From a virus, in IMG/VR virus record IMGVR_UViG_3300045988_123843, positions 5,414 to 37,413 of that record: DNA of 32,000 nucleotides. The stretch is one strand, 5' to 3'. How positions within the stretch are numbered: position 1 is the stretch's first letter; every line of letters starts with the position of its first letter. Shown here piece by piece: positions 4,367 through 32,000 of the stretch. The position numbers were made by a program, and so were the translations under genes. The notes beneath the pieces are model-generated. The model was not told where the DNA came from and did no database searches. It was given only the letters and a program-made list of their open reading frames with translations.

Positions 4367-7300
4367 TTGTCAGGTTACAGTCAAGTAAGAGGTATCTCCG
4401 TAAAAATTGATGGAGATACTACAGGCTTTCAAAAAGCAATTAATAAAATAAAATCCGAAACAGCAGGATTAGATAAAACAATGTCAAAACTGAAATCTTC
4501 TATGAAATTCAACGAAGGAGATTTTCAGTCCTTTGCGACATATCAGAACTTGTTACAAGATAAAATCAAAAGCACAACTAAGCAATTGGAAGTCTATAAC
4601 AAGAAACTGATGAATTATCCAAAGACACAGAAGCAGTGGGCCGATGCGGTTTCTTCTGCTACTAAGTCTATTGATAATTACAATCATACATTTAATTCTT
4701 TGAATAAAGAATATGCAGACAACAACAAACAGATCAACGCATGGAAAGAAGCAATTGCGAACGGTACGCGTTCGGCAGAACAAGGTGAAAATGCTATTCA
4801 AAGATTAGCTTCACGAAATGTCACTTTAAAAGAAGCAATGGATGATTGTAATTCAGGCATTGCCGAACAAAAAAAGGTATTGGTTGATTTAGGTAGTACA
4901 TACGAAGATTCTCAACGCACATATCTAGGTTTAAAAGCAGGTGCTTTAGGACTTAAAAATGAATTGGCAGGTATGTCAAAATCATTCATTTCAACGAATG
5001 AAACATTATTAAGACTGTATGATACGTTAGGAAAAGTAAGCTCAAAATCAGAACAGTTTGCAAACACTGTAAAACCATTGTCTATGTTATCTTTTGCAGG
5101 TATTGCAGCCGCTACAAAGACGGCTATTGAGTTTGAAGATGCATGGACTGGTGTTACAAAAACAGTAAATGCAACCCCTCAACAGTTTGAAAAAATCAAT
5201 AAAGGATTAAAAGATCTAGCTCAAAATACCTCGAGCACATATCAAGATATTGCACATTATGCAGAACTTGCAGGACAAATGGGTATCCCTACAGATGCTA
5301 TTGTTGGATTTACTAAAACTATTACAGAATTGGGTGATACTACAAATCTTGTTGGTGAAGAAGCAGCACAAAGTATTGCCAAGTTCTCAAACGTAATGGT
5401 TTCGCAGTCTAAAAAGACGAATACATATTATTCTCGTTTAGGTTCTACAATCGTAGATTTGGGAAATAAATTCTCTACAACCGAAGCAGATATTATGAAT
5501 ATGGCTACTAGATTAGGTGTTGCAGGTAAGATGGTAGGCTTTAACTCTAACCAAGTATTAGGGTTATCAACTGCATTATCTTCATTAGGTATTGAAGCCG
5601 CTGCTGGTGGTAGTTCTGTTTCTAAAATGTTGAAGACAATTGATCTATCTGTTTCAACGGGAGATAAGAAACTACAGAAGTTTGCAGAAGTATCTGGCAT
5701 GACTTCTCAACAATTCCAAAAGGCTTGGGGAGAAGATGCAGCGGGAACATTCTTAAAGTTTGTAGAAGGTATTGGAAAATCGGCGGATGTTACAAAAACA
5801 TTGGATGAATTAGGCATTAAGGAAGTACGTCAAGCACAGTCAATGGGTGCTTTGGCACAAAGTTCGGATGTATTGGCTAGTGCATTAAATGTTTCTAAAA
5901 ATGCATGGAATGACAATACGGCCATGGCAAACGAAGCAGAAAAGCGTTATGCGACATTGAAATCACAACTATCTCAAACATGGGAAGCTATTAAGCAAGC
6001 AGGTAATGAATTAGGTCAGGCATTTACGCCTACTTTAACAGATCTATTAAAGATAGTAAAAAAGGCAGCTAACGCATTCTCTAATTTAGATGAAGGAACG
6101 CAACAGACAATCGCAAAGATGTTATTGTTGACGGCAGCCGCTTATCCAACCGCAAAAGGTGTAAGTAAAGTAGCTGGTGCAACGCAAAGTGCTGTTGGAT
6201 TCTTTACTAAAGCACATCCAAAATTACAAAAGGTAGCGGATGGATTTGGAATTGTTGCAAAAGAAGGAGAAGTAGCAAGTACTTCTATCGTTTCGTTAGG
6301 AAAAGGTTTTGTGTTAACTCATCCAGCTATCACGGCTGTTACAGTTGCACTTGGTGCTTTTGCAGGTGCTGTTGTTTGGGCCGATAAAAAACGCAAGGAA
6401 GCGATGGAAACTGCAAATAAAGAGCTTGCATATAAAGATACAGATTATGCAGTTACATTAAAAGTTATTGATGGTTATGAGAAGTATGCAAAGTCAATGT
6501 CTAAAACTAAGACAAGTATGGGTGAAATTGTAACTCAATATATGCAAAACAACAAAACCGCAAGTCATTTGATGAAAACAATTGAAGATCTTAACGCAAA
6601 AGAATCTTTAAATGCTACGCAAAAGGCTATGCTTGCAGAAGCGGTTATGGAGTTAAATCAACTTTATCCTGATTTGGGAGTAGAAATTGATGAGAATACT
6701 GGAAAACTGAATTTTAATAAAGATGCACATTATGAAAGTATTGATGCAATCAAAGAAAGAATCACTCAGATTCAAGAAGAAACAAAACAAGAAGCGTTGG
6801 CAAGTATCGTAAAGAAAAATGCCACTGCTCGATTGAAAGCGGAATTAAAGAATGCAGAACTAACAGAAAGCATAAAGAGCACAACAGAAGCATTTAAAAA
6901 ATTAAATGCAGAGTATATTGCCGGTCATATATCAATGCAAGATTACATGAATCAATCAAGTGCATTGAAAGAAACTGTATCTACATTATGTACTGATTTA
7001 GCAGACTCATATACAAAACTACATGAAACACAAACTCAGTCTATATTGCAGTCGAATTATTTGGAAACACAGTCGTTTGAACAGATGGGAACAAACATGA
7101 AGATTAAATTGACTGACATTGCAGCACAGGCAGCTCAAGCAGGTATTCGCATTCCTATTGGTATTCAAGAAGGTATTACAAATGGAACTGCAAATGCGGT
7201 AGAAGCAGCTAACTATATGGCTAGTTTGATGAATTTTCAACAACTTGTAGATCAAGCCGGTATGATCGGTGGTTCTATTCCTATGAGTGTAGCCAATAGT

Positions 7301-10517: not shown

Positions 10518-11114
10518 ATGGCAATTGTATATAATGATTTAACCGTTAGTTTAACGAAGCCAAACGACAACTTGATTGTTGAAATGGTAAGAGCTGATTC
10601 GGGACGAGGATTAAGAATATTTGTCAGTGATGATGTGATTACTAGTAATAGCTCAAATGTTGATGAATCTTTGCATGCGATTTTATGGACTAAAAAGCCG
10701 AGTGGATTAATGGTTAGCATTGGTTCTACATCTGTATCAAGGTTTGAAAACTCAAATGCATACGAAATTGAATTTTCAGATACAGAAGCTTTTCAAAATA
10801 TCTTAGCAGAATTAGGAATTTGTGAATGCCAGGTGACATTAGAATCTAGTGGAACATTTGTCACAACTTTTAATTTTAAAATTAAGGTTGTTGATAATCT
10901 TGCAGCGCAGGAATCGTTAGAATCGACTGAAGAATACAAATCTATGATGGAATTGGTTGCGAAAGCAAATGCATATAAAAATGAATTAGAAAATTATGTG
11001 GCTCAATTTAAAAATCAACTGAAATTAACAGTTAATGTTAGATATGGAACTTCAGATCCTGTTGTACAAGATGGTGATAAAGTTGGAGATATCTATATCA
11101 AATATGAGGAGTAG
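10518..11114 (+). CDS. Baseplate / tail-fibre protein, BppU-N-like (tentative)
   Basis: ATG 10518 lies 6 nt after GTGAGG. There is an Ig-like N-terminal region followed by a coiled-coil. Position is downstream of Tal. Confidence 0.35.
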   Translation: MAIVYNDLTVSLTKPNDNLIVEMVRADSGRGLRIFVSDDVITSNSSNVDESLHAILWTKKPSGLMVSIGSTSVSRFENSNAYEIEFSDTEAFQNILAELGICECQVTLESSGTFVTTFNFKIKVVDNLAAQESLESTEEYKSMMELVAKANAYKNELENYVAQFKNQLKLTVNVRYGTSDPVVQDGDKVGDIYIKYEE

Positions 11115-17185: not shown

Positions 17186-17605
17186 ATGATTAATAGTATT
17201 GCTACGGCTGTTCAGACAGTCGATAATTCAAATAATGTATTGTTTCCTACAGATCGTGTAAGAAGCAAATCATGCCAGTGTCCATGTAAAGGATGGTTGG
17301 CACATGATCTAGGAAGTGGATTGTTTACACTAACAAAGCCAGGTATCTATGAAGTAACTTATACTGCGGATATTACGAGTGCAGCGGCAGGACAAGCTTC
17401 TTTAGTGCTTGAACTAAATGGAGAAGCAATTGGTGGAACACAATCTATTTATACTGTTGCAACTGCAAGTGCGTATGGAAATGTAAGTGGAGACACTCTA
17501 ATTCAAGTTCCATGTGGCGCATCTTATACAATTGCATTAGCAAATAACAGTGGTTTAGATCTATCTGTCCAAAATGCAAACATTATCATTAAAAAGATTG
17601 CGTAG
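17186..17605 (+). CDS. Stand-alone C1q/TNF-like jelly-roll protein resembling the BclA exosporium C-terminal domain
   Basis: 139 aa. FTLTKPGIYEVTYTADITSAAAGQASLVLELNGEAIGG...IALANNSG...NANIIIKKIA follows the BclA_C / C1q pattern. There is no collagen repeat, signal peptide or fibre stalk. Confidence 0.45.
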   Translation: MINSIATAVQTVDNSNNVLFPTDRVRSKSCQCPCKGWLAHDLGSGLFTLTKPGIYEVTYTADITSAAAGQASLVLELNGEAIGGTQSIYTVATASAYGNVSGDTLIQVPCGASYTIALANNSGLDLSVQNANIIIKKIA

Positions 17606-19877: not shown

Positions 19878-20975
19878 ATGGCAGTGGAATTAGATAAGAA
19901 GACAGGAAAATATATGTTTGCCGGAAAAATATATAAGGATGGTAAATGTATAAAGAGATATCGTAAGCGAGGTTTTGATTCTAAATGGGAAGCACAGAAA
20001 GCTGAGGTTGAATTCAGAAAAGATTTCTTTATGCTTCCATCAGATATGAATTTTGATAGACTATATAAAGCTTTTAAGGAGTACAACAAAAAGTACGTAA
20101 AAGAATCAACACTAAAATCAGATGAATATTTGTACATTGTTCTTTCTAAGGAAATGAAAGATATTGATTTTCTAGATAAAAGACAAATGCAAAACTTGAT
20201 CAACAAATTTGATGATAAATATTCAAAAGCATACGTATCAAGAATATATTTCTTTTTAAATAAGCTATATAAATTTGGTGTTACTTCTGAATACATCCAA
20301 TCAAATCCAATGACATATGTGAAACGTGATCTTAGATTGAATGAAAGAAAAGAAGAAATGACAATATGGCAGCAATATGATTTTGATTTATTTATTGAAG
20401 AAGTAGATGAACAAATGATGAAATGCTTTTATTCTGTTTTATTCTATATGGGATTACGAAAAGGTGAAGCCATGGCCCTACAATGGAAGGACATTGATTT
20501 TAGGAAGCAAACGATAGACATCAACAAAACATATAGATACAAAGAGAAAGACCCTAATAAATGGCTTACACCGCCAAAAACAAACAATAGCTATAGAACT
20601 ATCACAATGCCTAATACATTATCTAAAATGCTTCGAGAATGGTTTTTAGAATGCTCTAAATGGGATGATTTCACAAAAGATAAATTTGTATTTGGATACT
20701 ATAAACCAATATCACCTCAGACGGTACAAAGAAGATTTGATGATGCATACAATAAGGCAAAAGAAAAAGATGATGGATTGCCTAAAATAAGAATTCACGA
20801 TTTTAGACATTCACACGCATCATTTCTAATTAATAACATGGCAGGAGCTGGATTCTCAGATTTTGACATAGCCAAACGCTTAGGAGATACAGTTGAAACA
20901 TTGCATAATACATATGCACACTGGTTTGATACAAAAGATAAGAGTATTGTAGATATGATGAATAAGTTGTTGTAA
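19878..20975 (+). CDS. int: Tyrosine integrase (phage integrase family)
   Basis: 365 aa. The N-terminal arm-binding-like region is KTGKYMFAGKIYKDGKCIKRYRKRGFDSKWEAQKAE. Catalytic residues are seen in GLRKGEAMAL, HDFRHSHASF and TYAHW. Confidence 0.9.
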   Translation: MAVELDKKTGKYMFAGKIYKDGKCIKRYRKRGFDSKWEAQKAEVEFRKDFFMLPSDMNFDRLYKAFKEYNKKYVKESTLKSDEYLYIVLSKEMKDIDFLDKRQMQNLINKFDDKYSKAYVSRIYFFLNKLYKFGVTSEYIQSNPMTYVKRDLRLNERKEEMTIWQQYDFDLFIEEVDEQMMKCFYSVLFYMGLRKGEAMALQWKDIDFRKQTIDINKTYRYKEKDPNKWLTPPKTNNSYRTITMPNTLSKMLREWFLECSKWDDFTKDKFVFGYYKPISPQTVQRRFDDAYNKAKEKDDGLPKIRIHDFRHSHASFLINNMAGAGFSDFDIAKRLGDTVETLHNTYAHWFDTKDKSIVDMMNKLL

Positions 20976-21039: not shown

Positions 21040-21398
21040 GGTGATTGAGACTTTTACAGATTTGATTCTGTTAAGCTATGATTAAACATTGTGTTCCAGA
21101 ATGCATAGTGTTTATAGCTTCCGTAGGGTTGTATGTGTTTACCTCAAGTTGGATAGGTCTGTTGACTGAAAGAAAACATTCTGATTGTGTATGTGAGGAT
21201 AGAAAGATGGCTATCGCGCACGAAAGTGTCAAGGGTAGGAATGTAAATTCTGATGAGATGTGGGAACTATCGCCCCATCATATACACAAAATGAACCTTG
21301 GTAGCAACATAGTTGTATACCATTGATTAATTTACCTTGGCAACGCAAAAGCGGATGTCACTGAATCGGTCCTTGTCATTTGACAAGGTCTTTTTTTG
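21040..21398 (+). ncRNA. Candidate large structured non-coding element (3' UTR of int / leader of downstream ORF)
   Basis: Visibly GC-enriched relative to its flanks. It shows nested helices, a GAAA tetraloop hairpin, repeated CCTTG/CAAGG segments and a strong terminator (CCTTGTCA/TGACAAGG, then T7 at 21391-21397). The only ORF (21078-21326) looks non-coding. Confidence 0.35.
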
Positions 21399-22301: not shown

Positions 22302-23315
22302 TTAATATCCGTTTTGTGTTACACCATATTCTGCTTGTTCTTGTGTATAACCTTCATAAATCAATTGATCTATTAATCCTTGTCGAGAGAATGACGATAT
22401 GTCTAAATATTCTTTTGCTGATTTAGCGGCCTGCTCGTTCCAGTTTGTGTTGCAGTTATCAGCTGCATAAGTGGCTTCCTCTGTTGAGTAACCTTCATAT
22501 TCTAGTTGATGAATTAATCCTGAATAAGAGAATGCAGAAATATTTAAATATTCTCTTGCAGTTCTTAGTGCATTTTTTTCTCCTGTTGTTGGAGATGGAG
22601 TTGATGCATTTGAATTTGTACTTGGAGTAGTTGTAGTTGGTGAAGAAGATGAATTGTTTGAAGAAGAGTTTGAAGTGGTTGAATTTGTATTGCTTTGTTC
22701 TTCTTCCTCTTTTTTATCGTTAACAACTACATTATCAACAATACTATCAAATTCATTTTCGTAATCGTATTTCAATCCTTCGTTAGGCTGAATTAATATC
22801 ATACTGATAAATGATGTTTTGTTGTTATTTGATAAAAGATATATAAAGCATTTTGACGGTGTGCTTGTATCGTTGTTACTGTCATCATCATTTAACGTCA
22901 AATTTCCTGTTACTTCTGAATAATATACAGTACGACCGGCACTATTTAATGTTTTTATTCCATAACTTGTATCGGTATCCTCCATGAAATCATCTCTGTC
23001 TTTTAAAGCATCCATAAAGGCATCCGCTGCTTCACTATTCAATTCCATATCCATTAAAGTGATGGTTAAAATAGGATATCCTTCATCCGCCCTGAATGAT
23101 AGCCCTTCTTTTGTACTTACGACATTTTGAAAATACTCAGGTAAGTATATAGTAAAATCACCAATTTCAAAAGAATTTGCTTTTAAATCATCTGATTCTC
23201 TGTCGGTGATTTCTTCTGTTTGGTTATCAGCTTTAACTCTTTCTTTGTAGCTTGTACATCCTGTGCACATAGATAGTGCAAGCGTAGCAATCCCAATAGT
23301 TTTGAATAATTTCAT
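22302..23315 (-). CDS. ltp: Ltp-family surface lipoprotein (superinfection-exclusion type) with extra N-terminal domain
   Basis: Signal peptide plus lipobox-like LALSMCTGC and an S/T/N-rich linker. Two C-terminal Ltp repeats are present (NALRTAREYLNISAFSYSGLIHQLEYEGYSTEEATYAADN and AAKSAKEYLDISSFSRQGLIDQLIYEGYTQEQAEYGV). The position between int and cI is the same as in phage TP-J34. Confidence 0.7.
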   Translation of the reverse strand: MKLFKTIGIATLALSMCTGCTSYKERVKADNQTEEITDRESDDLKANSFEIGDFTIYLPEYFQNVVSTKEGLSFRADEGYPILTITLMDMELNSEAADAFMDALKDRDDFMEDTDTSYGIKTLNSAGRTVYYSEVTGNLTLNDDDSNNDTSTPSKCFIYLLSNNNKTSFISMILIQPNEGLKYDYENEFDSIVDNVVVNDKKEEEEQSNTNSTTSNSSSNNSSSSPTTTTPSTNSNASTPSPTTGEKNALRTAREYLNISAFSYSGLIHQLEYEGYSTEEATYAADNCNTNWNEQAAKSAKEYLDISSFSRQGLIDQLIYEGYTQEQAEYGVTQNGY

Positions 23316-24663: not shown

Positions 24664-25566
24664 ATGACTAAGGATGAGTTACAAACAAAAATTAACGGGT
24701 TCATAAAAGAAGAAACAGCGGATGAGAAAAGTAAGAATACCATTCGTAAATACAAACATGTTGCTACTTTGTTTGTTAACTCATTGCCTGATGGTGAAAT
24801 ACAAAAGTCCGATATAGTTGGTGTTAAAGATAAACTGCTGCATGATTATAAAATCAGTACAGTAAACAACTATATTGTGATCATTAATAAATTCATTAAA
24901 TATGCAGAAATCGTAGATTCAGATGATGATTTCAATTTCTTGAAACTTAAAAAATATTATTCAAAGAATTTATTGAAGAACGTAAGAGTCCAGAAAGATG
25001 ATTCTTTGGATGATATTTTAGAGCCTAATGAATTTCAAAGACTATTGAAAAAAGCCAAGGAAATCAACCGTATAGACCTATACGAGGTTATGAAGGTATT
25101 TGGATATACGGGAATTAGGCTGAGCGAATTACAGTTCTTTACTGTGGAAGCAGTAACGGATGACAATGTGTATGTTATGAACAAAGGAAAAGGAAGAGGA
25201 ATCATTCTACGTTCAGACTTGCGTAGAGAACTTCTTAAATACTGCAAGGACAACAAAATTGAAGAAGGATATATATTTACTTCTTCTGATAAGAAAAGCC
25301 CTGTAAACGCTCGTGTGTTGTCTAGAGATTTAAAGATGATTGCTGGTAAATGCAGAGGGATTAAGCTTGGCAAAGTACATCCACATGCATTTAGGCATTT
25401 GTTTGCCATTCAGTATTTGATGCAGAATGGTGAAAATGCGATTGCAGAACTAGCTGACATTTTGGGCCATTCTAGTTTAGAAACTACAAGAATCTATGTT
25501 CGTACAACAAGGAAAATGAAAAAGCAGAATCTTGAATCATTGAGTTATGCGAAAAGGAGTAGGTAA
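24664..25566 (+). CDS. Second tyrosine recombinase (XerC/XerD-like)
   Basis: 300 aa. Catalytic residues are seen in GIRLSELQ, HPHAFRHLFA and LGHSSLETTRIYV. The N-terminal SAM-like domain is present. Confidence 0.85.
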   Translation: MTKDELQTKINGFIKEETADEKSKNTIRKYKHVATLFVNSLPDGEIQKSDIVGVKDKLLHDYKISTVNNYIVIINKFIKYAEIVDSDDDFNFLKLKKYYSKNLLKNVRVQKDDSLDDILEPNEFQRLLKKAKEINRIDLYEVMKVFGYTGIRLSELQFFTVEAVTDDNVYVMNKGKGRGIILRSDLRRELLKYCKDNKIEEGYIFTSSDKKSPVNARVLSRDLKMIAGKCRGIKLGKVHPHAFRHLFAIQYLMQNGENAIAELADILGHSSLETTRIYVRTTRKMKKQNLESLSYAKRSR

Positions 25567-26670: not shown

Positions 26671-27464
26671 TGCAGTCAGTTAGTGAAATAATCCAAAAAC
26701 AAAATGATGCGAATAATGAGAAATATCTTAAAAGCAAACATTGCCAAAGCAATTGTGATAAATGCATGGCAGCCGGTGCATGTGGTATTTGGGAAAAGCC
26801 AGCGTATTACGACGGGAAATACTTGGTGGCTGCAACAAAGGTGTTCTGTTCAAAAAGAAATGACTGTGAGAAACTATCAAGCTATCGCAGTGAGTGGATT
26901 GAGAAGAACAAAAAGAACAGTGGCTTAAAAGATCTGTTGAATAAACGAATCAATGATTTTGTTGCATCTGATCCGTGGCAGGAAGCAATCAAAAAAATGG
27001 CAGTGAATTACATTCAGGATTGTAAAAACAATTTTGCAGAACACATGCCTTGCAATTGGCTGATGTTTTTAGGACAAAGTGGATGCGGTAAAACACATCT
27101 ATGTTCAGGAATCAGTAATTGGTTGCTCGAACAAAATAAACGCGTTCTGTACGTCAGATATATTGAGTTGAGTAATTCTATTAGCAACTTTGATTATTCA
27201 CTTCTAGAACGTGCTAAACATGCTCAAATCTTGTATCTAGATGATTTATTCAAATCTAGTGCCAATCGATTGGATGATAAAGCAATCTTTGATTTGATTG
27301 ATTATCGCTATAACAACAACATGCAGACGATCATATCCTGCGAAAGAACAAGCCAGGAAATGATTGATATAAATGAAGCGGTAGTTGGCCGAATTGTTGA
27401 AAAGTGCAATGGTTTCTTCTTTGAAATCGAGAAAGAGCCTGGAAAGAATTACAGGTTGAATTGA
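26670..27464 (+). CDS. DnaC/IstB-like AAA+ helicase loader
   Basis: Walker A GQSGCGKTH and Walker B ILYLDDLF. It lies immediately after the initiator gene (ATG overlaps its stop). Confidence 0.75.
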   Translation: MQSVSEIIQKQNDANNEKYLKSKHCQSNCDKCMAAGACGIWEKPAYYDGKYLVAATKVFCSKRNDCEKLSSYRSEWIEKNKKNSGLKDLLNKRINDFVASDPWQEAIKKMAVNYIQDCKNNFAEHMPCNWLMFLGQSGCGKTHLCSGISNWLLEQNKRVLYVRYIELSNSISNFDYSLLERAKHAQILYLDDLFKSSANRLDDKAIFDLIDYRYNNNMQTIISCERTSQEMIDINEAVVGRIVEKCNGFFFEIEKEPGKNYRLN

Positions 27465-27670
27465 TGGCACGAAAAATATATGGAATATACAAGGATGATC
27501 TTCCTGTTTGTATTGGAACAGAATATGAATGTGCATTGTTTTTAGAAACAACAATCAATACATTTAGATCCATGTGTTCCAAACAGAAAAAAGGAAAAAT
27601 AAAGCGTTCAAGGAATGGATTTATAATCGTAAAAATATGTGAAGAATTGGAATTGGAGGAAATAGAATGA
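27461..27670 (+). CDS. Hypothetical protein
   Basis: 69 aa, overlapping start and stop with its neighbours. Confidence 0.35.
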   Translation: MMARKIYGIYKDDLPVCIGTEYECALFLETTINTFRSMCSKQKKGKIKRSRNGFIIVKICEELELEEIE

Positions 27671-28110
27671 TTGAATTAAAAGTGATTGAAAAATTCATGG
27701 AAGAAAATGGTTTAGAACCATATGATGCATTTGATGTGGATGGTGAGCTAAAAAAATACAATCCATGTTATTTTACTGAAGAATTAGAATTACGATCAAT
27801 GTATCTTGATTTTAAAGGTGTTGATAGTCCACTTTGTACAATTTGGTTACATAGACTATTAACCGGGAAAGATCATGTAAAACATAAAAGAACAGAAGAA
27901 AATAATTCGGAAGTTGTTGCTGAAGAAAACAGAAATGTTGTTTGTAAGGTATCTGTTAAAGGATATGTTATGTCGGATGAAGAATTAGATTATTTAAGAA
28001 AAGCGTGTCATTTAGCAAGCAATGTTGCCTTTGAAAGCGACGAAAAAAATATTTATAGAAAATTAAATGAATATTTAATAACAGGTGAAAGATCCTATGA
28101 CAGAAAATGA
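27667..28110 (+). CDS. Hypothetical protein
   Basis: 147 aa, ATGA overlap with the upstream gene. Confidence 0.4.
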   Translation: MIELKVIEKFMEENGLEPYDAFDVDGELKKYNPCYFTEELELRSMYLDFKGVDSPLCTIWLHRLLTGKDHVKHKRTEENNSEVVAEENRNVVCKVSVKGYVMSDEELDYLRKACHLASNVAFESDEKNIYRKLNEYLITGERSYDRK

Positions 28111-28882
28111 TTTTATTCTATTCGACAGAATAGAAGTAATAAAAAAGACGATTGAGAAGTATGGGGAAGAAAACTTCTACATATCTTTCTCAGGAGGAAA
28201 AGACAGTACAGTTTTACATCATTTAATTGATGAAGCAATTCCTGGAAATCAAATACCAAGGGTGTTTATGAATACAGGGATTGAATATAACGATATACGG
28301 AGGTTCGTTGAGGAATTGACAGAAAATGATTTTAGATTTGTCATTGTAAATTCCAAAGTGAACATTCCACAAATGTTAAAAGAAAAAGGCTATCCTTTTA
28401 AATCAAAATTTCACGCAGAACAGGTGCGGAGATTTCAATTAAAAGGCGATTTTGAAAAAACAAACCGAAATTATTATGAAGGTGTAAAGGCAAGTGGAGT
28501 AGAGGCATCCGCCAAATTTAAATGCCCAGGTATACTGAAATACCAATTTTCAAAAGATTTCAATATTCCTTTAAGTCCAAATTGTTGTAATGAGTTGAAG
28601 AAAAAACCATTACATAAATGGGAAGAACAAAATAAAAGGAAAATTGCAATTATTGGTACTCGACAAGCTGAGGGCGGAATTAGATCAATGCACGAAGGAT
28701 GCATATTAACTAAAAACAATGAAGTTGTTAAATTCAAACCTTTAAATCCTTTGAATGATGATTGGATGGAATGGTACGTAAAAGAAAGAAACGTTAAATT
28801 ATGCAAGCTTTACTATCCACCTTACAACTTCAAGAGAACAGGATGTAAAGGATGCCCATTTGCGATACATCTACAGGATTAG
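28097..28882 (+). CDS. PAPS-reductase / PP-loop ATPase family protein, ending at an in-frame TAG
   Basis: PP-loop FSGGKDST and C-terminal CKGCPF. ATG 28097 lies 8 nt after AGGTGA. TAG is at 28880-28882. Confidence 0.75.
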   Translation: MTENDFILFDRIEVIKKTIEKYGEENFYISFSGGKDSTVLHHLIDEAIPGNQIPRVFMNTGIEYNDIRRFVEELTENDFRFVIVNSKVNIPQMLKEKGYPFKSKFHAEQVRRFQLKGDFEKTNRNYYEGVKASGVEASAKFKCPGILKYQFSKDFNIPLSPNCCNELKKKPLHKWEEQNKRKIAIIGTRQAEGGIRSMHEGCILTKNNEVVKFKPLNPLNDDWMEWYVKERNVKLCKLYYPPYNFKRTGCKGCPFAIHLQD

Positions 28883-29011
28883 TTGGAAGTTATGGAAAAG
28901 TATCTTCCAAATGAGCGAAAGCAATGTGAATTAATTTGGAAACCTGTATACGAGGAATATAGAAGGATTGGCTACAGGTTAAAAAGAATAGAAGAAAAGA
29001 GATTATTTTAA
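28883..29011 (+). other. In-frame continuation of the PAPS-reductase reading frame beyond TAG (42 codons)
   Basis: LEVMEKYLPNERKQCELIWKPVYEEYRRIGYRLKRIEEKRLF is in the same frame, with no RBS or start of its own. The same C-terminus is conserved in the orphan copy at 29483-29548. Confidence 0.5.
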
Positions 29012-29021
29012 GGAGATAAAC

Positions 29022-29468
29022 ATGGACAAATATTTGTTTAAATCGAATATATTCGCTCGATTATCAGAAATCGTAGAAGCTGATTCAGAAAAAGAAGTTA
29101 TGGATAAGATTAGAAATCGAAAATCTTTTGAAATTAAGCAAGAAGTTTTGAAAGTTTATCCATCATCAATTGAGATTACAAAAATCAAAGAAAAAAAGGA
29201 GAAAAACAACATGGAATTAAAAGAAACAGTAGAGTTAATGAACTCTGAAGATTACAAAGAAAGATTCATTGCAGAATATCACCAAGTAAAAATCAGATAT
29301 GAGAAATTGAAGAATTTCTGCAACAAAATTGAAGTTGAAGAAATGCTAGGCAAAGAAGTAACAAAACATGATTGCCCACTTGAACTATTAAGAGAGCAAC
29401 AAAAATACATGGGATTGTATTTATCCGTTCTTGAAAAAAGAGCATTAATTGAAAATGTTGAATTATAA
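29022..29468 (+). CDS. Hypothetical phage protein
   Basis: 148 aa with AAGGAG RBS. The C-terminal half (SEDYKERFIAEYHQVKIRYEKL...CPLELLREQQKYMGLYLSVLEKRALIENVEL) resembles a widespread small phage protein family of unknown function. Confidence 0.45.
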   Translation: MDKYLFKSNIFARLSEIVEADSEKEVMDKIRNRKSFEIKQEVLKVYPSSIEITKIKEKKEKNNMELKETVELMNSEDYKERFIAEYHQVKIRYEKLKNFCNKIEVEEMLGKEVTKHDCPLELLREQQKYMGLYLSVLEKRALIENVEL

Positions 29469-29482
29469 AAGGAGAAACAAAA

Positions 29483-29548
29483 TTTTATCAGGAATATAGA
29501 CGAATAAGTTATAGATTGAAGCGTATTGAAGAGAAAAGACTATTTTAA
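29483..29548 (+). pseudogene. Orphan 3'-end fragment of a second PAPS-reductase allele
   Basis: It translates as FYQEYRRISYRLKRIEEKRLF* with no upstream ORF or start. 18 of 20 residues are identical to 28949-29008 although 17 of 60 nt differ (hand count). Confidence 0.6.
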
Positions 29549-29563
29549 AAATGTGAGGTAAAT

Positions 29564-29860
29564 ATGAAACTAGAATGGAAAAAAAGAAATTTTGATAGAC
29601 ACGAAGTAATGCAGCTTGAATTGGTTGATGCCTACAATGAAAGCAGAACAATTGCATCCATCGTAACACTTCAGCCAAACACGAACGAAGAAAAAATGTT
29701 TGATTTACGATACACATTGTATTTTGAAGAATGGAAAAGTCCTTTTTGTTTGATTGGGAGTATGGAAGAAGCAAAGAGAACAGCTTTGCAATTCATTAAA
29801 GAAGAAGCGGTAGAAAGAATGAAAGAATTAACGTATATCATAAATTTTATTGATGAATAA
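29564..29860 (+). CDS. Hypothetical protein
   Basis: 98 aa, GTGAGG RBS. Confidence 0.45.
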   Translation: MKLEWKKRNFDRHEVMQLELVDAYNESRTIASIVTLQPNTNEEKMFDLRYTLYFEEWKSPFCLIGSMEEAKRTALQFIKEEAVERMKELTYIINFIDE

Positions 29861-29872
29861 AAGGAGAAACAA

Positions 29873-30121
29873 ATGACAACTACAGAAATGATTGAAGAAA
29901 GAATTGATGCATTAATTAAAGTGTATGAAGGATACATTGATGAGAACAACCAAAGTATCAAAAAACGCAAAAATCTTTTAATCTAGAAATTGGACGATGT
30001 ACGTTATGAATATCTTAAATTATATGTCGAAACGATTGAAATATATATGAGAGAAAATGAATTGTTTGAAATGTTTATTGAATCGTTAAAATATGCAAAG
30101 GCAGGGAAAGAAAATGAATAA
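29873..30121 (+). CDS. Hypothetical coiled-coil protein interrupted by in-frame TAG at 29984-29986
   Basis: AAGGAG RBS. There are 37 codons, then TAG, then 44 codons in the same frame. The TAA overlaps the next ATG (ATGAATAA). The downstream half has no RBS or start. Confidence 0.4.
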
Positions 30122-30413
30122 TAAAGAATTGAAAAAAAACTTAGAAAAGGAAAGAAAAAAGCAAAGAGAAGATGCTATAAAAATAAATACTTTTATCAGA
30201 TTAGATAAAAGCAGTGCTTCTGAAATCGATAAACAAATTGAGCAAACTTATTTATCTTTGCAAAAGAATATTAAATTTGTCTGTACCAATAAAGATTTGA
30301 TGAACAGTATGCTAGATGAATTAGACTACATTGTTTACGCATCGAAACTATATGGTGGAAAGCATGTTATGGAAGAATTGGATAATCGTTACAAAAATAA
30401 ATTAATGAGTTAA
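30114..30413 (+). CDS. Hypothetical protein
   Basis: ATG 30114 is preferred over the track start 30093. 99 aa, Lys/Glu-rich. Confidence 0.45.
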   Translation: MNNKELKKNLEKERKKQREDAIKINTFIRLDKSSASEIDKQIEQTYLSLQKNIKFVCTNKDLMNSMLDELDYIVYASKLYGGKHVMEELDNRYKNKLMS

Positions 30414-30426
30414 AAGGAGAATGAAA

Positions 30427-31059
30427 ATGAATGAAAAATTAAGGCCATGCCCCTTTTGTGGAGGGGGAGCAAGACTACAACTAACTGATGATGAAGGAAA
30501 CTTTAAAGATGAATCCTATTTAGAAAATCCATACAGTGGAGTTGGATATGTAGTTATGCACGATATAAGTCATTCAACAAGCTGTTGTCCAATTGCTACT
30601 GATTCCGATAGTTCGCAAGGCAGCTACATTTACGCATCAAAGGAAGCAGCAATAAACGCTTGGAACGGAAGAACAGATGATGATTTAACCGATTATATAT
30701 CTAAAATTATGAATATCTTCTATGGATCATTCATAAATCACAATAAAGAGCTAATTCTGATTCCAAAAACAAATCTATATTTCTATTTAGGTGATGTTAA
30801 TACAGTTGACGAAGTGAAGTACAAATTACTTGAATGGTGCAGCAGAAGTAGTTTTAAAGCAATGCCATACAGATATGCCAAGAAGAATAAAAAGTATCAA
30901 GACAATGTTTTAAGAAAAGTGAATGAATGTCTTGATGCGGAATTTACACGAGAACAAATGGAATTGATTTACACAAAATTAGGAAACTGTATAAATCATG
31001 AATTGACAATGAAATTTGTTAGTAGTGGTTATGATATGAAACAGTTAGAGGAAAAATAA
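30427..31059 (+). CDS. Lar-family (restriction-alleviation-like) zinc-ribbon domain fused to an unknown C-terminal domain
   Basis: LRPCPFCGGGARL...CCPIA...SKEAAINAWNGR follows the Lar family pattern. ATG 30427 lies 7 nt after AGGAG. The C-terminal ~120 aa are unrecognised. Confidence 0.5.
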   Translation: MNEKLRPCPFCGGGARLQLTDDEGNFKDESYLENPYSGVGYVVMHDISHSTSCCPIATDSDSSQGSYIYASKEAAINAWNGRTDDDLTDYISKIMNIFYGSFINHNKELILIPKTNLYFYLGDVNTVDEVKYKLLEWCSRSSFKAMPYRYAKKNKKYQDNVLRKVNECLDAEFTREQMELIYTKLGNCINHELTMKFVSSGYDMKQLEEK

Positions 31060-31060
31060 A

Positions 31061-31303
31061 ATGATGGATATAGAGTATCTGGAAACAAAGGCTAAGCTAG
31101 AATCGATAAATGCTTGCACTAAATATGCTTATTTCCTTGAATACAGTGATGATTCACGTAAAACTTACGACTTGATCATGGACTACTCAGATGAAAATAA
31201 AGATAATTATAAAACAATCATTGAGTGTATGACCTGGCACGAAGTGGTAAGTGTTATTAAAGCAATGTACTGCATCATGCAGCATGAATGCTTAGAAGGG
31301 TAA
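31061..31303 (+). CDS. Hypothetical protein
   Basis: 80 aa, tightly packed in the operon. Confidence 0.4.
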   Translation: MMDIEYLETKAKLESINACTKYAYFLEYSDDSRKTYDLIMDYSDENKDNYKTIIECMTWHEVVSVIKAMYCIMQHECLEG

Positions 31304-31317
31304 AGGGTAGAAAGAGG

Positions 31318-31566
31318 ATGTCTAAAGTTGAATTAAGACTTAACGAATTAATAGATGCATTAAAAAATAAAATTGATGAACTTCGTAAATCAAAAGAACT
31401 TGAAAAAGCGTTTTTAGATGATGAATTAGAAGTAAATGATAATGAACAAATGTTTACGCAATTCAAAATAATATGTAAATATGATTCTAAATTAATGATT
31501 TTAGAAGAGATTCTTAAATCACTTGAGTATGTAAGAACAGGGGAATATAAGAGAGAAAATAAATAA
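31318..31566 (+). CDS. Hypothetical coiled-coil protein
   Basis: ATG 31318 after AGAAAGAGG is preferred over the track start 31288. Confidence 0.4.
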   Translation: MSKVELRLNELIDALKNKIDELRKSKELEKAFLDDELEVNDNEQMFTQFKIICKYDSKLMILEEILKSLEYVRTGEYKRENK

Positions 31567-31568
31567 AT

Positions 31569-31817
31569 ATGAATAAGAAATACGAATACAATGGAAATAT
31601 TTATTGTGAAGATGATTTATCAACAATAATAAATAATTATGGAGGAAATTTACGCAACTTGTATTATGAATTATTGAAAAATAAAAAAGTTGAAGAATTT
31701 AATGGTTATTACCTCAAATGTGTTTTTTTTGACGGAGAATATTTTGAAAATTACAAAGAATTAATTAAAGAAGAATATGAAAAGTTAGGAATTGAGGTGT
31801 TACAATGCTATGAATAA
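31569..31817 (+). CDS. Hypothetical protein
   Basis: 82 aa. Confidence 0.4.
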   Translation: MNKKYEYNGNIYCEDDLSTIINNYGGNLRNLYYELLKNKKVEEFNGYYLKCVFFDGEYFENYKELIKEEYEKLGIEVLQCYE

Positions 31818-31932
31818 ATATAAGGAAGCTTTAAATACAATTATTGATGCCATAAGGGATTACGTGTCATATAGAGAATTTGATTTGTTGCCTAGTGAAA
31901 ATGAAATATACGGTGCAAAGTTAATAAAGTAG
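31810..31932 (+). CDS. Short ORF (40 codons) ending at TAG; probably the N-terminal part of a frameshifted gene
   Basis: ATGAATAA overlap with the upstream stop. Translation: MNKYKEALNTIIDAIRDYVSYREFDLLPSENEIYGAKLIK. Confidence 0.3.
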   Translation: MNKYKEALNTIIDAIRDYVSYREFDLLPSENEIYGAKLIK

Positions 31933-32000
31933 ATTTATATGAGTGGATTCCTGTTTCAGGAAGGCTTCCTAGAGAACATGATAGCATTTTTGCTAAATTG
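31929..32000 (+). CDS. Start-less -1 frame continuation with DUF551-like motif, runs off the window
   Basis: VDLYEWIPVSGRLPREHDSIFAKL contains the W-I/V-x-V/S-x-x-RLP motif common at the N-termini of small phage DUF551-type proteins. There is no start codon in this frame after the upstream stops. Confidence 0.3.

Follow-up and report, generated by a model that had tools for sequence, protein, structure and literature searches.

Do in-frame TAG codons in a gut phage genome point to a change of the genetic code, or to genes that have simply been lost? The question is raised by a stretch of 32,000 nucleotides (nt) of viral DNA (IMG/VR record IMGVR_UViG_3300045988_123843, positions 5,414 to 37,413, hereafter called the window), in which two early genes are each interrupted by a single in-frame TAG: a PAPS-reductase-like gene (gene A) and a gene coding for a small helical protein (gene B). 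An initial annotation, made from the letters of the window alone, had offered as explanations amber suppression, TAG-to-Gln recoding, regulated read-through, or two independent nonsense mutations in a decaying prophage. The analysis reported here argues strongly for two independent and recent G to T nonsense mutations (GAG to TAG), each truncating a non-essential early gene, and against an altered genetic code; we hold this explanation to be very probably correct.

Two genes with coding sequence on both sides of an in-frame TAG

The two interrupted genes are organised as follows.

28097..28882, + strand: gene A, 5′ part, 261 codons and TAG; PAPS-reductase / DndC-like PP-loop gene, with an alternative upstream start at GTG 28085
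28880..28882, + strand: site A, TAG (GAG/Glu in relatives, G to T at 28880), from contig and protein alignments
28883..29011, + strand: gene A, 3′ remainder, 42 codons and TAA (29009-29011); encodes the conserved C-terminal three-helix part
29873..29986, + strand: gene B, 5′ part, 37 codons from ATG 29873 and TAG; small helical gene
29984..29986, + strand: site B, TAG (GAG/Glu in relatives, G to T at 29984), from contig alignments
29987..30121, + strand: gene B, 3′ remainder, 44 codons and TAA (30119-30121); includes NELFEMFIESLKYAK, the block with the highest conservation in the family

Both TAG codons are in frame with the open reading frame (ORF) upstream of them, counted from ATG 28097 for site A and from ATG 29873 for site B. 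In relatives, the start of gene B is ATG 29888, which leaves 32 codons before the TAG. When the region 27000-32000 was shuffled, 42 or more open codons after a stop were obtained in 1.6% of cases. Because full-length homologues (~300 residues for gene A, ~77 for gene B) run across both TAG codons, the sequences downstream are genuine coding sequence, and on this point the initial annotation was borne out, by a check of the positions as well as by homology. It had also remarked that gene B ends in the same stop/start overlap as neighbouring genes. This overlap, ATGAATAA, is indeed present at 30114-30121, where the next gene starts at ATG 30114, and it is found again at 31810-31817. The further statement that neither downstream half has a ribosome-binding site or a start codon was right in its first part, as no Shine-Dalgarno sequence precedes any of the possible restart codons, but not in its second: TTG or ATG codons occur in frame 0 to 3 codons past each TAG (TTG 28883 and ATG 28892 after site A, TTG 29990 after site B).

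The TAG codons at the two sites are not one-off assembly errors. The truncated product of gene A (261 residues) was called on 3 contigs, among them scaffold_81 of assembly ERZ28568765, a two-unit concatemer described below, and the site A TAG is present in both unit copies of this scaffold. The truncated product of gene B (37 residues) was called on 5 contigs belonging to at least 3 sample assemblies (ERZ28568765, ERZ27229757 and ERZ28573323), obtained with different assemblers. Neither site lies within a homopolymer.

Near-identical relatives carry GAG at both sites

Two contigs from other sample assemblies, L002 and L003, show 3 and 1 mismatches to the window over 1.7 and 1.27 kb (99.8-99.9% identity), and both have GAG at 28880. 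A G at this position was also found in the IMG/VR contig L029. At the protein level, the residue aligned with site A is Glu in the closest full-length proteins, P0001 and P0002 (304 residues, 94% and 90% identity), and Gln or Glu in more distant homologues.

Relatives for site B were drawn from Logan and ENA assemblies, from IMG/VR and from a metagenome-contig collection. A G at 29984 was present in all nine further relatives (L008, L009 and L010, the IMG/VR contigs L030-L033 and the metagenome contigs L034-L035), and for L009 it is the sole difference from the window across all 234 nt of gene B. The 5 contigs with the TAG at site B include L002 and L003, which keep GAG at site A. We conclude that each TAG arose from a GAG codon by one G to T substitution and is found in a single near-clonal lineage only. 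A megablast search with positions 27600-32000 found no match among 50,697 phage records.

These alignments discriminate between the explanations first considered. Close relatives with a sense codon, together with other inactivating lesions in this genome, had been named as part of the situation that would speak for simple pseudogenes; what we found is GAG at both sites in relatives and, in a third gene treated below, a 19-nt deletion. Two independent nonsense mutations are thus supported by the GAG of near-identical relatives. TAG-to-Gln recoding is not supported, the closest relatives carrying Glu at both columns. As for regulated read-through, the stop is not conserved and TAG is restricted to one near-clonal lineage; conserved programmed read-through was rejected likewise, all other relatives having GAG.

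TAG is a normal stop in the present genome

The window matches scaffold_81 with 4 mismatches in 32 kb. This scaffold (90,813 bp) is a head-to-tail concatemer of two units, the unit being 45,231 bp long with a verified circular junction, and the window is a circular permutation of the unit that runs from the capsid gene through the integrase region to the early region. Together with contigs L001, L011 and L013, the window covers the whole unit. No tRNA gene was detected by ARAGORN or Rfam in these four sequences, hence in the whole unit, so that the phage-encoded suppressor tRNA envisaged at the outset finds no support. Pyrrolysine decoding of TAG was rejected too, in a phage without any tRNA.

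The lack of a tRNA is weak evidence when taken alone, because a suppressor was detected in only ~40% of the recoded genomes in the survey on which the definition of recoded gut phages rests. To count as recoded in that survey, a contig of 5-100 kb had to gain more than 10% in coding density; the TAG reassignment it describes is to Gln only, and the recoded stops were mainly located in structural and lysis genes. We therefore give the corresponding figures for the complete unit. Gene calls yielded a coding density of 87.5% under code 11, which rose to 88.7% when TAG was treated as a sense codon, a gain of 1.1 points. A naive six-frame ORF coverage, which rose from 83.9% to 88.0% under code 15, was inflated by spurious ORFs and was replaced by the gene-call figure. 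TAG is the terminator of 16 of the 76 called genes (21%), including those of the large terminase and the tape measure. In-frame TAG codons number two in the whole genome; they interrupt early accessory genes, and the structural and lysis genes are free of them.

Two late TAG codons, at 11112 and 17603, separate gene pairs that lie in the same frame, and these pairs were examined as candidates for read-through. Both were rejected: each TAG is located within or beside the ribosome-binding site and start of the next gene (GAGGAG-TAG-TGT-ATG; TAGGTGA...ATG), and the BclA_C domain and PHROG 20016 profiles stop exactly at TAG 17603. The argument that late-gene TAG codons are true terminators, which had been raised against global recoding, therefore holds, and it is strengthened by the share of TAG-ended genes, the profile ends, the overlaps with ribosome-binding sites and the coding density. 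We conclude that TAG is a normal stop in the present genome.

Compared with the TAG-recoded (code 15) gut phages (crAss-like, Lak, Agate and others; Borges et al., bioRxiv 10.1101/2021.08.26.457843; Peters et al., PMC9523058), the present phage is alike in being a low-GC human-gut phage with in-frame TAG codons where homologues read through. It differs from them in having just two such codons, Glu rather than Gln at the aligned positions, about a fifth of its genes ended by TAG, GAG in near-identical relatives, neither a suppressor tRNA nor a release-factor gene, and a density gain far below the survey criterion.

The gene A truncation removes the most conserved block of the enzyme

Motif, profile score and modelled fold agree in placing gene A in the PAPS reductase / PP-loop ATP pyrophosphatase family. 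In a Pfam profile search, PF01507 scored 62.1 bits, for a cut-off of 22.5. The match to PHROG 424 (1.6e-29) covers residues 14-292 of the read-through protein and spans residue 262, where the TAG lies. Gene A has over 7,000 matches among database proteins, and the best of them, 296-304 residues long, cover 100% of the read-through protein. In the alignment, the SGGKDS PP-loop is invariant, and the cysteines of the CC...CxxC motif are invariant or nearly so. The structure was modelled for P0001, the full-length homologue 94% identical to gene A (AlphaFold, predicted local distance difference test, pLDDT, 92). In a fold search this model matched CysH (6vpu) and APS reductase (2goy) with a probability of 1.00 and an E value of ~1e-7; a PDB search with the gene A sequence alone gave no match. 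Gene A thus resembles phage PAPS-reductase-like proteins (PF01507 / PHROG 424; DndC/SspD-like; CysH/APS reductase fold) in SGGKDS, CC...CxxC and Pfam score, whereas it shares ~15-19% identity with the solved PAPS/APS reductases and has, relative to them, an extra conserved C-terminal three-helix part, the one that is cut off in the present genome. A scan of species-representative genomes gave relatives of at most 54% identity, the best being in an Erysipelotrichaceae metagenome-assembled genome, and confirmed that elsewhere the protein is full-length.

The 261-residue product retains both SGGKDS and CC...CxxC. What it lacks is the C-terminal part, where conservation in this enzyme is highest. 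Among 39 homologues, 11 residues past site A are invariant (L263, P271, C277, W281, Y285, E287, Y288, R289, Y293, R294 and L295), and in the P0001 model this part forms three helices (259-269, 271-280 and 282-290), with high pLDDT. Since the 42 missing residues hold these invariant positions and the three modelled helices, truncation at residue 262 should be disabling, and the truncated enzyme is most likely inactive.

In related phages gene A has been disrupted differently, by a frameshift (P0020) or by a deletion that fuses it to a downstream gene (P0073). Other relatives have an in-frame deletion (P0183/P0189, 231 residues) or duplication (P0003/P0004, 369 residues) of 73 codons, located between two 18-nt direct repeats. 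In the window, an exact 18-nt direct repeat, TGACAGAAAATGATTTTA, is present in gene A at 28098-28115 and 28317-28334, 219 nt apart.

Gene B belongs to a small helical family

Profile searches with gene B gave no Pfam or PHROG match. Its homologues are 74-85 residues long, begin with MIEERID, continue through the TAG column and cover the 82-residue read-through ORF. Among the full-length homologues listed for gene A or gene B, none is split at the TAG columns.

A protein of 163 residues encoded just past the window (L001 13185-13676; unit 32206-32697) opens with a paralogue of the gene B domain (MIEERI...; 29% identity, pairwise E = 1e-5), which suggests that the gene B family represents a module that can also serve as the N-terminal domain of a longer protein. 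The same protein ends in a WMPLPNPYK tail similar to the C-terminal end encoded by the DUF551-like gene (31810), to which we now turn.

A third gene is broken by a deletion, and the three losses can be ordered

31810..31932, + strand: DUF551-like gene, 5′ part; homologues of 140-142 residues span both halves, and the gene continues to ~32213 in L001

The initial annotation had pointed out a third TAG-associated break at 31930. It turned out to be a frameshift: a DNA alignment with L016 revealed that 19 nt (TGGCATTACTTAGAAAATT) are missing at 31918/31919, which shifts the frame onto TAG 31930, a triplet that is out of frame in the ancestral gene. Some of the 140-142-residue homologues match PF04448 (DUF551). 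As no suppressor could rescue a gene broken by a deletion, this case argues that gene loss is tolerated in the accessory region.

The relatives also indicate the order of events. The broken gene was called as two pieces, of 40 and 51 residues, in L014 as well, which is 95% identical to the window, and since the gene calls are the same the deletion is older than the amber mutations. The TAG at site B is in turn older than that at site A, because all members of the lineage readable at these places carry the 19-nt deletion and the TAG at site B while L002 and L003 keep GAG at site A. Sequence comparison thus places the 19-nt deletion and the gene B amber as the older losses, and the gene A amber as the newest.

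The lesions lie in a variable accessory region of a complete phage

The genes for morphogenesis, lysis and lysogeny are unbroken: small and large terminase, portal, protease, capsid, tail genes, amidase, integrase and repressor. The unit was assembled as a concatemer across the integrase-proximal region, which points to a circular or excised state. Judged from its sequence, the phage is a temperate one of siphovirus type, excised or circular, and not a degraded integrated remnant. The expression "decaying prophage" is therefore apt for the accessory early genes, which have decayed, but not for the element itself, a complete 45.2-kb circular or excised unit with its core genes unbroken. The probable host is a Holdemanella or some other bacterium of the Erysipelotrichaceae: the 90%-identity cluster of gene B has a member annotated from an uncultured Holdemanella, and the best match in the scan of species-representative genomes was the Erysipelotrichaceae one mentioned above.

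Two features lie between genes A and B.

29022..29468, + strand: Sequestin-domain gene, intact, with its own ribosome-binding site (PF21825, 1.5e-16)
29483..29548, + strand: orphan second PAPS-reductase 3′ end, from a different allele (19 nt and 3 amino acid differences over 66 nt)

PF21825 is a family of anti-Thoeris signal sponges (bioRxiv 10.1101/2025.07.12.664507). The orphan had been described as keeping 18 of 20 residues despite 17 nucleotide differences, and these counts are exact once the first codon is dropped. The Sequestin gene is flanked by segments 28946-29011 and 29483-29548, which together constitute a diverged direct repeat. Contigs L029 and L030 are devoid of the Sequestin gene, and in them the PAPS-reductase 3′ end is joined directly to a 98-residue gene. 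From this arrangement, the orphan 3′ end is best described as a recombination scar left by gain or loss of the Sequestin cassette. Its use as a sign of current function was rejected, the differences reflecting divergence of the alleles before cassette recombination and not selection on the orphan.

Besides the Sequestin gene, the accessory, anti-defence or exclusion genes clustered around the lesions include a Lar-like restriction-alleviation domain fused to a PHROG 7711 domain (30421-31059), an Ltp-type lipoprotein beside the repressor (22302-23315) and, further downstream, ArdA (L011 3831-4331), which is encoded on the other strand immediately ahead of the terminase genes. Phage PAPS reductases have themselves been treated in the literature as candidate anti-defence proteins of the DndC/SspD-like kind, found in variable regions.

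Two nonsense mutations as the best explanation

Ribosomes would terminate at each of the two TAG codons. Gene A would then yield a 261-residue protein without its C-terminal three-helix part, and gene B a stub of 32-37 residues; the downstream halves would not be translated, since they have no Shine-Dalgarno sequence. The Sequestin gene 3′ of gene A should be unaffected, having its own ribosome-binding site, while the gene after B, which starts inside the normal stop of B, may lose translational coupling. Such losses would be tolerated because the genes sit in a variable accessory and anti-defence region, where gain and loss are routine.

Some points weigh against this explanation. Both changes followed the same rare path: among the codons that a single step separates from TAG, 8.5% are GAG, and GAG to TAG accounts for 145 of the 6,624 one-step nonsense paths in the genome (~2%). 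That both of two changes took it would not be expected if mutation were uniform, although the comparison was made post hoc and with n = 2. The shared path could reflect a G to T mutational bias, or chance; this repetition is the sole observation that leaves slight room for an amber-specific tolerance. In addition, low-level read-through may take place, or re-initiation at one of the three in-frame TTG and ATG codons mentioned above.

The classical amber mutants of T4 and lambda were selected in the laboratory, affect essential genes, and grow only on suppressor hosts. What the present alleles have in common with them is the truncation of a phage protein through a one-base change to TAG, but they are natural, located in dispensable genes, and need no suppressor. 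They also resemble the accessory (moron or anti-defence) pseudogenes of temperate phages and prophages, which also combine recent lesions, intact core genes and a mosaic region with an orphan 3′ end at a cassette junction. Nothing substantive sets the present case apart from these, except that the element, in contrast to degraded integrated remnants, is seen excised or circular.

Alternative explanations

Amber suppression in trans, by a suppressor tRNA of the host or of a co-resident phage, or through leaky TAG termination, would make the two TAG codons neutral, or conditional switches. That both lesions are ambers replacing GAG, by a rare path, would find an explanation there, as would the wholly undamaged downstream halves, and the genome is AT-rich, the setting proposed for the onset of recoding. 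However, the mutations are too recent for the undamaged 3′ sequence to count, the complete phage genome has no tRNA, and the position aligned with TAG is occupied by Glu, in contrast to the Gln of every known TAG-recoded phage. General suppression should moreover be harmful in a genome where TAG ends so many genes, essential late ones included, with the next starts overlapping or adjacent, and the third broken gene of the region is beyond the reach of any suppressor. We regard suppression in trans as very unlikely. The more specific proposal that the ambers are read through conditionally via a trans suppressor tRNA, the accessory and anti-defence genes being expressed only in certain cells, deserves slightly less credit still; were it true, the repetition of GAG to TAG would reflect a tolerance of amber codons specifically, by which a small temperate Firmicute phage would have begun to move in the direction of TAG recoding. 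Equally improbable is a functional role of the truncated or split proteins, in which the 261-residue core and the stub would be active, or the downstream halves be made by termination-reinitiation. The in-frame TTG or ATG codons right after each TAG would allow it, and the PP-loop and CC...CxxC are kept in the 261-residue product; yet the restart codons are not preceded by a Shine-Dalgarno sequence, the listed full-length homologues are unsplit at the TAG columns, and the block removed from the enzyme is its most conserved one.

The same nonsense mutations might instead have been selected, loss of the protein being advantageous because it is sensed by a host defence, or is costly when the matching defence is absent. 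Three lesions inside 3.05 kb of accessory region, in a lineage with a handful of single-nucleotide polymorphisms over 45 kb, are suggestive in this respect, and so are the repeated and various breaks of the PAPS-reductase gene in relatives, the anti-defence neighbours (Sequestin, the Lar-like protein and ArdA) and the DndC/SspD-like candidacy of phage PAPS reductases. Against this, both genes are intact in most relatives, with strongly conserved residues, contig ends or gene-calling errors may account for part of the truncated proteins in the databases, and near-identical genomes are too few for any selection test. Selection is in our view unlikely. Finally, a sequencing or assembly artefact, with TAG codons absent from the real phage DNA, is scarcely credible. 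G to T is the typical change caused by oxidative damage, and, apart from the window, the TAG at site A is so far known solely from contigs that may all come from one sample; but damage errors stay at a low read fraction and do not reach the assembly consensus, the site B TAG recurs across sample assemblies and assemblers, and the site A TAG stands on three contigs and in both scaffold copies, away from any homopolymer.

Implications for annotation

When a gut phage contig contains in-frame TAG codons, code 15 is often suspected, and the value of the present case is mainly that of a negative result. Recoding and nonsense alleles can be separated by the codon present in near-identical relatives, the use of TAG elsewhere in the genome, the tRNA content of the complete genome, and the gain in coding density. 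The locus also shows, on a small scale, a dated succession of gene losses within the anti-defence region of an apparently active phage. For annotation, the three genes should be marked as disrupted, and not translated with code 15.

Other features of the window

Downstream of the integrase gene, on the + strand, two Rfam RNAs lie back to back: a drum RNA (RF02958, 82 bits, 21073-21184) and a skipping-rope RNA (RF02924, 54 bits, 21188-21286). A mechanical ORF at 21078-21326 overlaps both of them and is probably not a gene. Besides the 365-residue integrase (19878-20975), a second tyrosine-recombinase (Phage_integrase) protein of 300 residues is encoded in the early operon (24664-25566, + strand). 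Between the tail and lysis genes, positions 17186-17605 (+ strand) encode a 139-residue protein with a BclA C-terminal (C1q/TNF-like) domain, the end of which is a genuine TAG stop.

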